From: Chloroflexota bacterium
Lineage (GTDB): Bacteria; Chloroflexota; UBA6077
Assembly (NCBI GenBank): GCA_027356795.1
Contig: DAHVXI010000006.1
Span: forward strand, 1-52,903
Reading direction: 5' to 3'
Length of the DNA: 52,903 bases
Position 1 is the first letter of the stretch. Every line of letters begins with the position of its first letter. A model generated the notes under the pieces. The model was not told the DNA's origin, searched no databases, and worked only from the letters and a program-made list of their open reading frames with translations. Position numbers and translations under genes: made by a program. This document shows, in pieces, positions 50,878 through 52,524 of this stretch.

Positions 50878-52524
50878 CTACTCGGGCCGATCCGCCCGGT
50901 ACCCCAGCTCCGCGAGCAGCCGCCGGGCCACCTCAGCGTCGTTCCACGGGACCAGCTCCGCGCCGATAACCTGGCGCCGCTCGTGCCCCTTGCCGGCCAG
51001 CAGCACCGTGTCGCCCCGGCGAGCCCGGTGGAAGGCCTCACGGATCGCCTCCTCCCGGTCGGCGATCTTCAGGTAATGCTCGCCCTCTCGCCATCCCTCG
51101 GCCCGGGCCCCCTCGGCGATCCGCTCAGCGATCTCCAGAGGGTCTTCGAAGCGAGGATCGTCCACGGTGAAGAGGCCGAAGTCTGCCACGGTGGCCGCGA
51201 TTCTGCCCATCTCACCCCGGTTGCCGGGGTCCCTCTCGCCGGCCAAGCCGAAGAGGACGAACAGCCTCCCCGGCGTCGTCGGTCTGAGGGTGCCAAGAAC
51301 CGTCCGGAGGGCCTGGGGGGTATGGGCGAAGTCGACTATCACGGTGAAGGGCTGGCCGCCATCGACCCGCTGCATGCGGCCGGGCACCGAGTCCACCAGG
51401 GCCATCGCCTGGCGGATCTGCTCGAGACTCGCCCCCTGGCTCAACCCCACGGCCGCGGCCGCCAGCCAGTTGTACACGTTGAAGCGTCCGGCCAGCCGCG
51501 ATTCCACCTCCACCGCGCCCGAGGGCGTGGCCAGGGTGAAGCGGGAGCCGCCCGGCAGCAGCCGCACGTCGGCTGCCGTCACGAAGGAGTCCCGGATACC
51601 GAGTGCTGAGTGCTCAACGCTCCAGCCCTCACCCTGACCCTCTCCCAAAGGGAGAGGGGAACTCATCTCCGCGTCGCCCCTTCGCCCCATCGCCCCGTCT
51701 CCCCGTCTCCCCGTCGCCCCCTCGATCCCGTACCAGATCACCCGAGCCCTGGTCGCCGCGGCAAGCTGCGGGGAGTGGGGATCGTCGGCGTTCAGCACCG
51801 CCACCTTCTCGACCCCTTTGTCCACCGCCCTGTCCAGCAGGGCGAACAGCTTTGCCTTAGCCCGCAGGTAGCTCTCCACGGAGCCGTGGAAGTTGAGATG
51901 CTCGGGGCTCAGGTTGGTGAACACCGCCGCATCGAACTCACAGTGGAGCAGACGATCGAGCGCCAGGGCGTGGGAGCTGGACTCCAGCACGGCGTAATCG
52001 ATCCCCTCATCCACCATCTGCCGCATCAGCCCCTGAACCTCCACCGGCTCCGGCGTGGTGTGCTGGGTGTCGTTGTGGCTGATCCGCCCTCCCACCTTCA
52101 CGTCGGCGGTGGTGATGAACCCGGTCTTATGACCCATGGCCTCGATGATCGCGCTCACCAGGTGGGTGGTGGTGGTCTTGCCGTCGGTGCCGGTCACCCC
52201 CACGACCCGCAGCCGGCGGGCTGGGTAGCCGTAGAAGGAGGCCGAGAGGTCGGTCAGAGTCCTGCGGGCGTCGGGCACCTGAACCAGGGGCACCCCCTCG
52301 GGGATGTGCACCGAGGGATTCTGGGTGACCACGGCGGCAGCGCCCCGACGGAGGGCATCCGGGATGAAGGCGGATCCATCGACGTGGAAGCCCGGCAGGG
52401 CTACGAACAGCTCTCCCGGCTTCACCAGACGGGAATCGTAGGCGATGCCCGTCACGGTCGTGTCCTGGTCCCCCAGCAGTCGGGCCTCGGGCAACTCCCT
52501 CAAGATCTCGCGCAACGTCGGCAT
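50878..52524 (-). CDS. murE: UDP-N-acetylmuramoyl-L-alanyl-D-glutamate--2,6-diaminopimelate ligase (MurE) with a ~45-aa repeat-derived in-frame insert
   Basis: 548 aa. GVTGTDGKTTT P-loop, FNVYNWLAAAAV, and the DFAHTP motif; Mur ligase organisation throughout. Confidence 0.9.
   Translation of the reverse strand: MPTLREILRELPEARLLGDQDTTVTGIAYDSRLVKPGELFVALPGFHVDGSAFIPDALRRGAAAVVTQNPSVHIPEGVPLVQVPDARRTLTDLSASFYGYPARRLRVVGVTGTDGKTTTTHLVSAIIEAMGHKTGFITTADVKVGGRISHNDTQHTTPEPVEVQGLMRQMVDEGIDYAVLESSSHALALDRLLHCEFDAAVFTNLSPEHLNFHGSVESYLRAKAKLFALLDRAVDKGVEKVAVLNADDPHSPQLAAATRARVIWYGIEGATGRRGDGAMGRRGDAEMSSPLPLGEGQGEGWSVEHSALGIRDSFVTAADVRLLPGGSRFTLATPSGAVEVESRLAGRFNVYNWLAAAAVGLSQGASLEQIRQAMALVDSVPGRMQRVDGGQPFTVIVDFAHTPQALRTVLGTLRPTTPGRLFVLFGLAGERDPGNRGEMGRIAATVADFGLFTVDDPRFEDPLEIAERIAEGARAEGWREGEHYLKIADREEAIREAFHRARRGDTVLLAGKGHERRQVIGAELVPWNDAEVARRLLAELGYRADRPE
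51586..51720. repeat. Mosaic of dispersed-repeat sequence lying in-frame inside murE
   Basis: 51625-51659 (GCCCTCACCCTGACCCTCTCCCAAAGGGAGAGGGG) is the reverse complement of the intergenic unit at 44342-44379 except for the loop. It is flanked by GAGTGCTGAGTGCTC and GTCTCCCCGTCTCCCCGTCGCCCC motifs that resemble motifs in intergenic DNA elsewhere in the window. Confidence 0.8.

Follow-up and report, generated by a model that had tools for sequence, protein, structure and literature searches.

Why would a gene for building the cell wall contain dozens of codons that look like intergenic repeat DNA? The gene is murE, which encodes UDP-MurNAc-L-Ala-D-Glu:meso-DAP ligase and is normally essential. 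It lies on the minus strand (50878-52524) of a 52,903-nt stretch from a Chloroflexota bacterium (UBA6077; assembly GCA_027356795.1, contig DAHVXI010000006.1, positions 1-52,903 of the forward strand). We will refer to this entire stretch as the window. A first-pass annotation of the window proposed that a palindromic repeat had invaded murE in frame and is tolerated as a surface loop. We found that the site is a clade-wide hypervariable hotspot, and that the window holds one state of recurrent remodelling rather than the product of a single invasion.

To place the boundaries of the insert, we used an alignment (A1) of the window's MurE and 36 relatives. The window's protein reads ...RVIWYGIEG, followed by 44 additional residues, and then continues with FVTAADVRLLPGGSRF (FVTAADV...). 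Because relatives with an empty site (P0009, P0011, and P0026) have just 2 residues at this position, we assign the insert to 51586-51717 on the minus strand. It comprises 132 nt, or 44 codons, and encodes residues 270-313 (ATGRRGDGAMGRRGDAEMSSPLPLGEGQGEGWSVEHSALGIRDS). The alignment of orthologues bears out the earlier claim of extra codons that preserve the reading frame. As for the range that was proposed (51586-51720, or about 45 codons), the start was correct, and the end moves to 51717 because 51720 includes a native glycine codon.

The insert is a mosaic of three short repeat families. In sense-strand order, these are an array of octamers, a TMECO/BoxC unit, and decayed heptamers. The octamers (51664-51724, minus strand) have the unit GGGGNGAC, and the sense strand reads GGGGCGAC GGGGAGAC GGGGAGAC GGGGCGAT GGGGCGAA GGGGCGAC GCGGAGAT. 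TRF reports a period of 8 with 6.6 copies and 86% matches at 51672-51724, and a pattern search for the octamer found 7 matches in the window (versus 0.77 expected). The array extends into the native Glu-Gly codons of murE. Since its sense strand has six GGGG tracts with 4-nt spacers, it is predicted to have the potential to form a G-quadruplex (G4); repeats with at least four consecutive G tracts are considered G-quadruplex-type simple-sequence repeats. The second component is a complete TMECO/BoxC unit (51626-51658, minus strand; CCCTCTCCC TTT GGGAGAGGG TCA GGGTGAGGG), which matches the consensus exactly and reads as (S)PLPLGEGQGEG in the frame of murE. The third component (51586-51625, minus strand) can be read as the decayed heptamers (GAGCGTT)(GAGCACT)(CAGCACT)(CGGTATC)(CGGGACT)CC, encoding WSVEHSALGIRDS. 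At the same position of murE, four related loci (L010, L132, L133, and L008) have pure arrays of (CAGCACT)n or (CAGAACY)n, which end at the same ...CACTCC/TTCGTG junction. The octamers and the heptamers are tandem simple-sequence repeats, and slippage, as opposed to invasion, can lengthen such arrays.

The central unit belongs to a described family. TMECO is an intrastrand-triplex motif, CCCTCNCCC N3-6 GGGNGAGGG N3 GGGNGAGGG, that was previously named BoxC or PIT; a census of 262 proteobacterial genomes counted 3610 copies (Holder et al. 2015, NAR 43:10126, PMC4666352). Single strands of TMECO form a stable triplex in vitro, and in E. coli K-12, the motif is "always intergenic" and is not linked to known mobile elements (PMC4666352). 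TMECO loci are also unusually rearranged between strains of E. coli, and stalled replication, slippage, and error-prone repair are the proposed causes (PMC4666352). In the window, there are two exact matches to the consensus (51626-51658 on the minus strand and 44344-44376 on the plus strand; 0.00 expected), so that, with two partial or interrupted copies, the window has four copies in 52.9 kb. We also used BLAST to compare a 48-nt region of murE to 5426 complete genomes of E. coli, and 4620 of the 5426 have a match with at least 80% identity. The best matches to the unit in murE are 34/35 nt (97.1%) and are chromosomal, with no annotated feature underneath. By inspection, the three 9-nt blocks of the unit appear to have the G·G:C and T·A:T register that the triplex requires. 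Judging by its sequence, then, the central unit is a member of the named TMECO/BoxC/PIT family, and not an unnamed REP or MITE. The copy in murE lies in frame within a gene, unlike the intergenic copies of K-12, but we still classify it as TMECO because location describes where the motif occurs, not how it is built.

The first-pass annotation had described the insert as REP/MITE-like. It was right that a repeat lies in a housekeeping gene, but the class seems not to fit. The TMECO unit has no GTAG head, and the ends of the insert (GCGACGGGG... and ...CCGGGACTCC) do not form inverted repeats, as those of a MITE would. The only 5-mer that is common to both ends, CGGGA, is native sequence of the empty site. 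We know of no transposase for TMECO/BoxC, and although the motif has been known for decades, to our knowledge it has no accepted function or mechanism of spread.

Does the rest of the protein look like a working MurE? The open reading frame encodes 548 amino acids with three Pfam domains (Mur_ligase at the N terminus, Mur_ligase_M, and Mur_ligase_C). Its best matches by sequence in PDB are MurE enzymes (E = 1e-87 to 1e-93), and the P-loop GTDGKT, K223 (the position of the carbamylated lysine), and the DDPR motif are conserved in A1. The MurE chains in PDB align as two blocks, to residues 9-251 and 318-535 of the query, and the insert is unmatched. For example, in MurE from M. tuberculosis (2wtz), residues 48-286 align to 9-251 and residues 311-527 align to 318-535, which leaves about 66 residues of the query facing about 24 in the solved structure. 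An AlphaFold2 model built on A1 (mean pLDDT 85.3, pTM 0.85) has the MurE fold, with TM-scores of 0.85-0.90 against solved MurE structures (normalised to the target). The sole internal segment with pLDDT below 50 is residues 272-310, which falls between a strand at 261-267 and three consecutive antiparallel strands at 313-342 (the next strand is 313-323). Because this low-confidence segment lies between strands of a model with the MurE fold, the insert is predicted to be disordered and to bulge out of the central Mur-ligase domain where one strand connects to the next, which agrees with the earlier expectation of a loop. It would join the last strand of the main sheet to the small antiparallel sheet of that domain.

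The 44 residues might instead be a native, ancestral loop of this lineage of MurE that resembles repeats in composition only, an alternative that the first-pass annotation had itself raised. Native codons at the site are G-rich (GAG GGG, or GGA GAT GGG in the empty sites) and do resemble the octamer unit. But no relative that we examined shares the 44 residues, and the outgroups and four members of the clade have just 2-4 residues at the site. Also, composition does not account for an exact 33-nt match to a consensus (0.00 expected) with a variant that differs only in the loop and lies 7 kb away. The alignment led us to reject the idea of a native loop, and we give it almost no credence. We also rejected an intein (the insert is too short and lacks intein motifs) and translational bypass (none is needed, as the insert is open and in frame).

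Another concern is that the assembler might have joined two halves of murE through a repeat that is shared across the community, so that the real gene has no insert or a different insert. Logan contigs (k = 31) do break within the insert, only inside the ~24-nt core of the repeat, and the summed depth of the core is 40- to 1100-fold above that of the flanks, owing to the many copies of the motif in those communities. However, a megahit k141 contig from ENA (L001), which was assembled independently of the window, crosses all 132 nt of the insert. It is 99.8% identical over 2418 nt, and within the insert, it differs by just one substitution, in the third block of TMECO. Furthermore, 20 public runs hold the region, and four of them, each from a different study, have Logan contigs that span 51300-51652 and 51629-52000 at similar depths and include both junctions. 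Each of these contigs carries its own side of the insert (the heptamers and most of TMECO, or TMECO and the octamers). The two halves make one intact MurE, and a diverged strain (X10, with ten single-nucleotide differences in 700 nt) has the same insert. These data support the insert across 51.5-51.8 kb, where the first-pass annotation had been wary of the assembly. The insert is not a misassembly; we view assembly error as excluded and consider the joining of unrelated halves to be exceedingly improbable.

If the insert is real, then how does the site vary among relatives? A search of 5.8 billion proteins placed the gene in metagenome-assembled genomes (MAGs) of Chloroflexota and found 32 relatives with 66-82% identity and lengths of 499-561 amino acids. 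Our set for the clade has 33 MurE proteins, and scanning metagenome contigs with MurE added only five members of the clade. Across these 33 proteins, the insert site is the only internal region with indels, and it has 25 length states that range from 2 to 53 residues. (The exception is P0033, whose last ~60 residues diverge abruptly from its relatives, at columns 555-628 of A1. This looks like a frameshift or an assembly error, and all of the alignment's other internal indels trace to it.) Of the 33 proteins, 29 have some kind of insert, and all 29 inserts are open and in frame. More distant MurE proteins from Chloroflexota (~50% identity) have no insert here, and their lengths differ only at the termini. 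Even close relatives can differ: P0030 and P0031 are 96% identical, with a single 21-amino-acid indel that lies exactly at the insert site. The local instability between relatives that was reported for TMECO in E. coli is therefore seen here as well.

We obtained the DNA sequence at the site for thirteen relatives. TMECO is present in L003 (P0005), after two octamers, and in L005 (P0019), together with octamers and half of a GTAG-headed 77-nt repeat. (This half-repeat is similar to 50750-50824 of the window; 22/26 nt are identical, with a compensatory change in the stem.) L006 has octamers only, while L008 combines octamers with a different GTAG-headed hairpin and with CAGAACY heptamers. L010, L132, and L133 have pure heptamer arrays, L002 (P0002) has two inverted heptamer arrays, and L007 and L134 are empty. 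The earlier picture of an invasion holds in outline, but not as a single event, given the 25 length states in 33 proteins and that two of the three components are microsatellites.

A maximum-likelihood tree of MurE, built without the columns of the insert, shows that empty sites are nested within lineages that bear inserts and that the carriers of TMECO fall in two separate clades. The window's MurE groups with P0002 (no TMECO) and P0005 (TMECO), while P0019 (TMECO) groups with P0030 and P0031 (no TMECO). Could this pattern be due to a single ancient composite of octamers, TMECO, and heptamers in the ancestor of the clade? If so, the diversity would reflect decay, slippage, and deletion in place, the three TMECO units (in the window, P0005, and P0019) would be orthologs, and no new units would be drawn to the site. 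In all three genes with TMECO, the octamers precede it. Also, the window and P0005 lie in a supported clade (SH-aLRT 96), and most of the relatives' inserts end in the same ...GACTCC or ...CACTCC junction. On the other hand, P0019 is in the other clade and its sisters lack TMECO, and despite the greater distance between the MurE proteins, the TMECO of P0019 is nearer to the window's (with one difference, in the loop) than that of P0005 is. Several relatives also have private units (the half of the 77-nt GTAG repeat in L005, the GTAG hairpin in L008, and the inverted heptamers in L002), which require separate arrivals. The tree and these lineage-specific units favor repeated arrivals of TMECO over the decay of one composite. 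This is not proof, but we think that a single ancient insertion is unlikely.

Overall, the 132-nt segment is probably a selfish or neutral cassette of repeats that built up in a surface loop where MurE tolerates extra sequence. The cassette is built from three families that are prone to form non-B DNA and that otherwise lie between genes: G-quadruplex-type octamers, TMECO/BoxC, and CAGCACT-type heptamers, now remnants. (The first-pass annotation was correct that the insert is made of sequence that is otherwise in non-coding DNA of the window, as all of these families are intergenic elsewhere in it.) Once repeats were present, they could have turned the site into a local hotspot of instability, where separate lineages gained, lost, or replaced units or expanded them by slippage. 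Selection on MurE would purge variants that break the frame or contain stop codons. The survivors would be read in open, hydrophilic frames (such as GDGETGRRG, SPLPLGEGQGEG, and STQHSAL) and would form a flexible loop that is rich in Gly, Glu, Arg, and Pro. Presumably, the loop is neutral for the activity of MurE. As for how TMECO reached the site, it might have been inserted by an unrecognized enzyme or by template switching at stalled forks.

Several observations weigh against a selfish or neutral cassette. First, the retention of some kind of insert in 29 of 33 members of the clade could hint at a benefit. Second, the shared order of octamers and then TMECO in three lineages could reflect inheritance, not repeated insertion. 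Third, wherever we have DNA sequence, the sense strand is the G-rich one, which could be explained by coding constraints or by a function at the RNA level. Fourth, we saw no sign of a transposase, of a duplicated target, or of inverted repeats at the ends of the TMECO insert. Finally, we found no metatranscriptome run that holds the insert region of murE, and no transcript or peptide data for it.

The frequent presence of an insert and the constant orientation of its G-rich strand would also fit an adaptive module that serves MurE or its mRNA. For example, a G4 or a hairpin could pace translation between subdomains, or the loop could be a flexible tether that binds a partner. The mRNA would have the six GGGG tracts as well as a 9-bp GC stem, which is present in the minimum-free-energy fold of the region and which the first-pass annotation had described as a strong RNA hairpin. 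The stem stands, but its strength does not carry over to the region: the 151-nt RNA is not more structured than shuffled sequences (z = 0.28), so we gave up the notion that this mRNA is exceptionally structured. Furthermore, neither the sequence, nor the length (2-53 amino acids), nor the composition of units is conserved; some relatives within the clade have empty sites; and the peptide is of low complexity and is predicted to be disordered. For TMECO itself, an analysis of genomic positions gave no sign of a regulatory role (PMC4666352), and reporter work, as cited in that paper (its ref. 41), detected no promoter or terminator activity for these motifs. We found no evidence for a function of the insert, and we doubt that it is an adaptive module; this seems quite improbable to us.

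Is TMECO translated in other genes? We scanned one genome per species for exact matches to the variant of TMECO with a TCA loop (33-36 nt), and we found it in at least 120 stretches (L011-L130) from many phyla. The matches listed include Pseudomonadota, Planctomycetota, Chloroflexota, Acidobacteriota, Myxococcota, Verrucomicrobiota, Atribacterota, and others. Many of the 123 exact copies among the matches listed lie within long open frames. At least 7 of those 123 copies (seven were tested) are in frame within genes and have Pfam domains on both sides. The seven genes encode HypF, the E2 component of a 2-oxoacid dehydrogenase, an ATP-dependent DNA ligase, a formiminotransferase-cyclodeaminase, a NuoE/NuoF fusion, a thioredoxin-like protein (DUF255), and MetH. 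The in-frame copies in these kinds of genes are at L030, L034, L049, L062, L080, L081, L087, L092, and L123. Most of the seven that were tested read SPLPxGEGQGEG, and two read PHPDPLPxGEG; the other two frames of TMECO contain a TGA stop. In the library of papers that we searched, we found no mention of PLPLGEG, GEGQGEG, or similar peptides, or of translated copies of TMECO.

In-frame copies of TMECO are often paired with an upstream unit, LTPALSP..ERE(N/K)R. The motif occupies one and the same linker in three homologues of NuoE/F, and there is a further copy in the Complex1_51K domain of L081. (L081 is recorded as an uncultured Bifidobacterium sp., but its NuoE/F fusion is homologous over its full length to that of L080, which is from a MAG of Verrucomicrobiota, so the contig may be mis-binned.)

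The published census of TMECO covers proteobacteria only, and here one 33-nt sequence is near-identical across phyla. One speculative scenario is that TMECO units, possibly along with G-rich microsatellites, spread without a transposase by structure-driven copying, such as template switching at forks that are stalled by a triplex or a G4, and that they prefer sites that already hold such DNA. The murE loop, with alleles that are filled, filled differently, or empty in one clade, would then be a natural trap that reveals how the units spread, and the stop-free SPLPxGEGQGEG frame would be a pan-bacterial source of insertions into linkers and loops, which has not yet been described for this family. 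We consider this scenario possible but rather unlikely.

How does the murE insert compare to known systems? It resembles TMECO/BoxC/PIT in Enterobacteria, with which it shares a 33-nt architecture, a near-identical sequence, copies that are dispersed at least within the window, some inverted pairs, and local rearrangement. In contrast, the host here is a Chloroflexota MAG, and the copy is translated within a normally essential gene, between two microsatellite arrays. The Rickettsia palindromic elements are in-frame palindromic repeats in unrelated housekeeping genes (Ogata et al. 2000, Science 290:347, and 2002, Genome Res 12:808, as described in PMC10969869). As summarized there, they are alike in being palindromic repeats in frame, with a stop-free reading, that are tolerated at the protein surface. 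They differ in being ~100-150 bp, unrelated in sequence, and confined to Rickettsia, while the murE unit is 33 nt and is in Chloroflexota. Each of their sites has a single element, while the insert in murE is a mosaic with tandem repeats, and they are not known to form a clade-wide hotspot in one gene.

The tandem arrays have parallels in the G-rich heptamer repeats of Xanthomonas and Nostoc (Rehm et al. 2015, PMC4692102) and the STRR heptamers of cyanobacteria. These are also tandem 7-8-nt units with G tracts that can form G4, and they are dispersed, mostly intergenic, and variable in copy number. Unlike those repeats, the octamers (GGGGNGAC) and CAGCACT heptamers of murE are translated, and their total length is restricted to multiples of three. 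REP sequences and REPINs, which are mobilised by RAYTs (Bertels & Rainey 2011, PMC3116915), are similar to TMECO in being short GC-rich palindromes that are dispersed, are often 3' of convergent genes, and form mosaic clusters. But TMECO has neither the GTAG head nor the doublet of a REPIN; the 77-nt GTAG-headed repeat in the window, with its half-copy in the insert of P0019, is a separate family.

These results extend the reach of the motif. A 33-nt sequence that was described as strictly intergenic and proteobacterial is present in Chloroflexota, is 97% identical to copies in E. coli, and is translatable inside a normally essential enzyme. The clade also provides a natural allelic series, in which one loop was remodelled repeatedly, and this series could be used to infer how units arrive, expand, and are lost. 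Repeats that form non-B DNA can create variation in protein length, presumably without loss of function, which bears on how much the Mur-ligase fold can tolerate. There is also a lesson for gene annotation, because odd low-complexity loops in proteins from MAGs are not necessarily errors.

The window has other relatives of these repeats. As the first-pass annotation had noticed, the unit at 51625-51659 is the reverse complement of the repeat at 44342-44379, apart from the loop; we find a 39-nt reverse-complement match (44341-44379 versus 51623-51661) that is 92% identical, with the differences confined to the hairpin loop. The core of the hairpin occurs 4 times in the window (versus 0.02 expected), and the other three copies (13114, 18375, and 44344) lie between convergent genes. 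The perfect TMECO at 44344-44376 has an inverted, TMECO-like partner at 44298-44336 (together, 44298-44379 on the plus strand). This inverted pair resembles the paired type A and type B sites of TMECO in E. coli, and in the homologous region of L003 and L004, this stretch between the genes is missing (there is a gap in the BLAST alignment at 44313-44409). At 13114-13156 (plus strand, intergenic), a partial TMECO hairpin precedes two octamers that are oriented the other way (CCCGTCGCCCCGTCT).

The remaining copy (18373-18432, plus strand, intergenic) is a TMECO unit with a second hairpin, of 27 nt (GTGAACATGCC...GGCATGTTCAC), that is nested in its second loop. No Rfam family matched at the gathering level, but the design of this copy is the architecture of whalefall-1 (RF01762), whose consensus has a CUCUCC hairpin, a second hairpin, and a AGGGUGAGG tail. 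The scores for whalefall-1 were 25.1 bits for 18373 (E = 7e-5), 19.2 bits for the copy in murE, which has no second hairpin, and 19.1 bits for 44342. As all of these are below the gathering threshold (19-25 versus 37 bits), this is a resemblance only. Still, given the shared design, whalefall-1 may not be a dedicated small RNA but a variant form of the TMECO repeat.

Octamers are also found just downstream of murE, where inverted arrays (ACGCGGAG x2.9 and TCTCCGCG x2.1) form an intergenic hairpin (50610-50668), and there are short intergenic runs at 13142 and 32240. The first-pass annotation had linked two motifs next to the hairpin in murE to intergenic hairpins. The recurrence of TCTCCGCGTC holds up: it is found exactly at 50652 and 51666, each time within a tandem array of octamers (TRF finds arrays at 50610-50632, 50652-50668, and 51672-51724). 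Taken by itself, the link between GAGTGCTGAGTGCTC and 13540-13575 is weak (there are 3 mismatches, and 7 such matches were found in the window versus 2.8 expected); however, the unit that they have in common is the heptamer CAGCACY, which makes up the pure arrays at the murE site of relatives.

Two further kinds of repeats in the window have translated counterparts in murE of relatives. The 77-nt repeat (family D19) has inverted GTAG...CTAC ends and looks REPIN-like; it is found at 30174-30250, 50750-50824, and 52631-52706. The half of it that is translated in the loop of P0019 is GGCGGGGCACAAGACCCCGCCCTAC, and its compensatory stem change is relative to 50803-50826 of the window. Long intergenic hairpins of inverted heptamer arrays (of the TCAGCCA, CTCAATC, and CAGGGCT types) are found at 27899-28143 and 36125-36202, and in design they match the inverted heptamer arrays that are translated in murE of L002 (P0002). 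Finally, a distant MurE from Chloroflexota (P0061) has a C-terminal extension, EPRSQQPGARGQESGAGSREPGAGSQEPGAREG, that looks like a translated heptamer array at the 3' end of the gene, so reading through repeats may lengthen the ends of genes as well.

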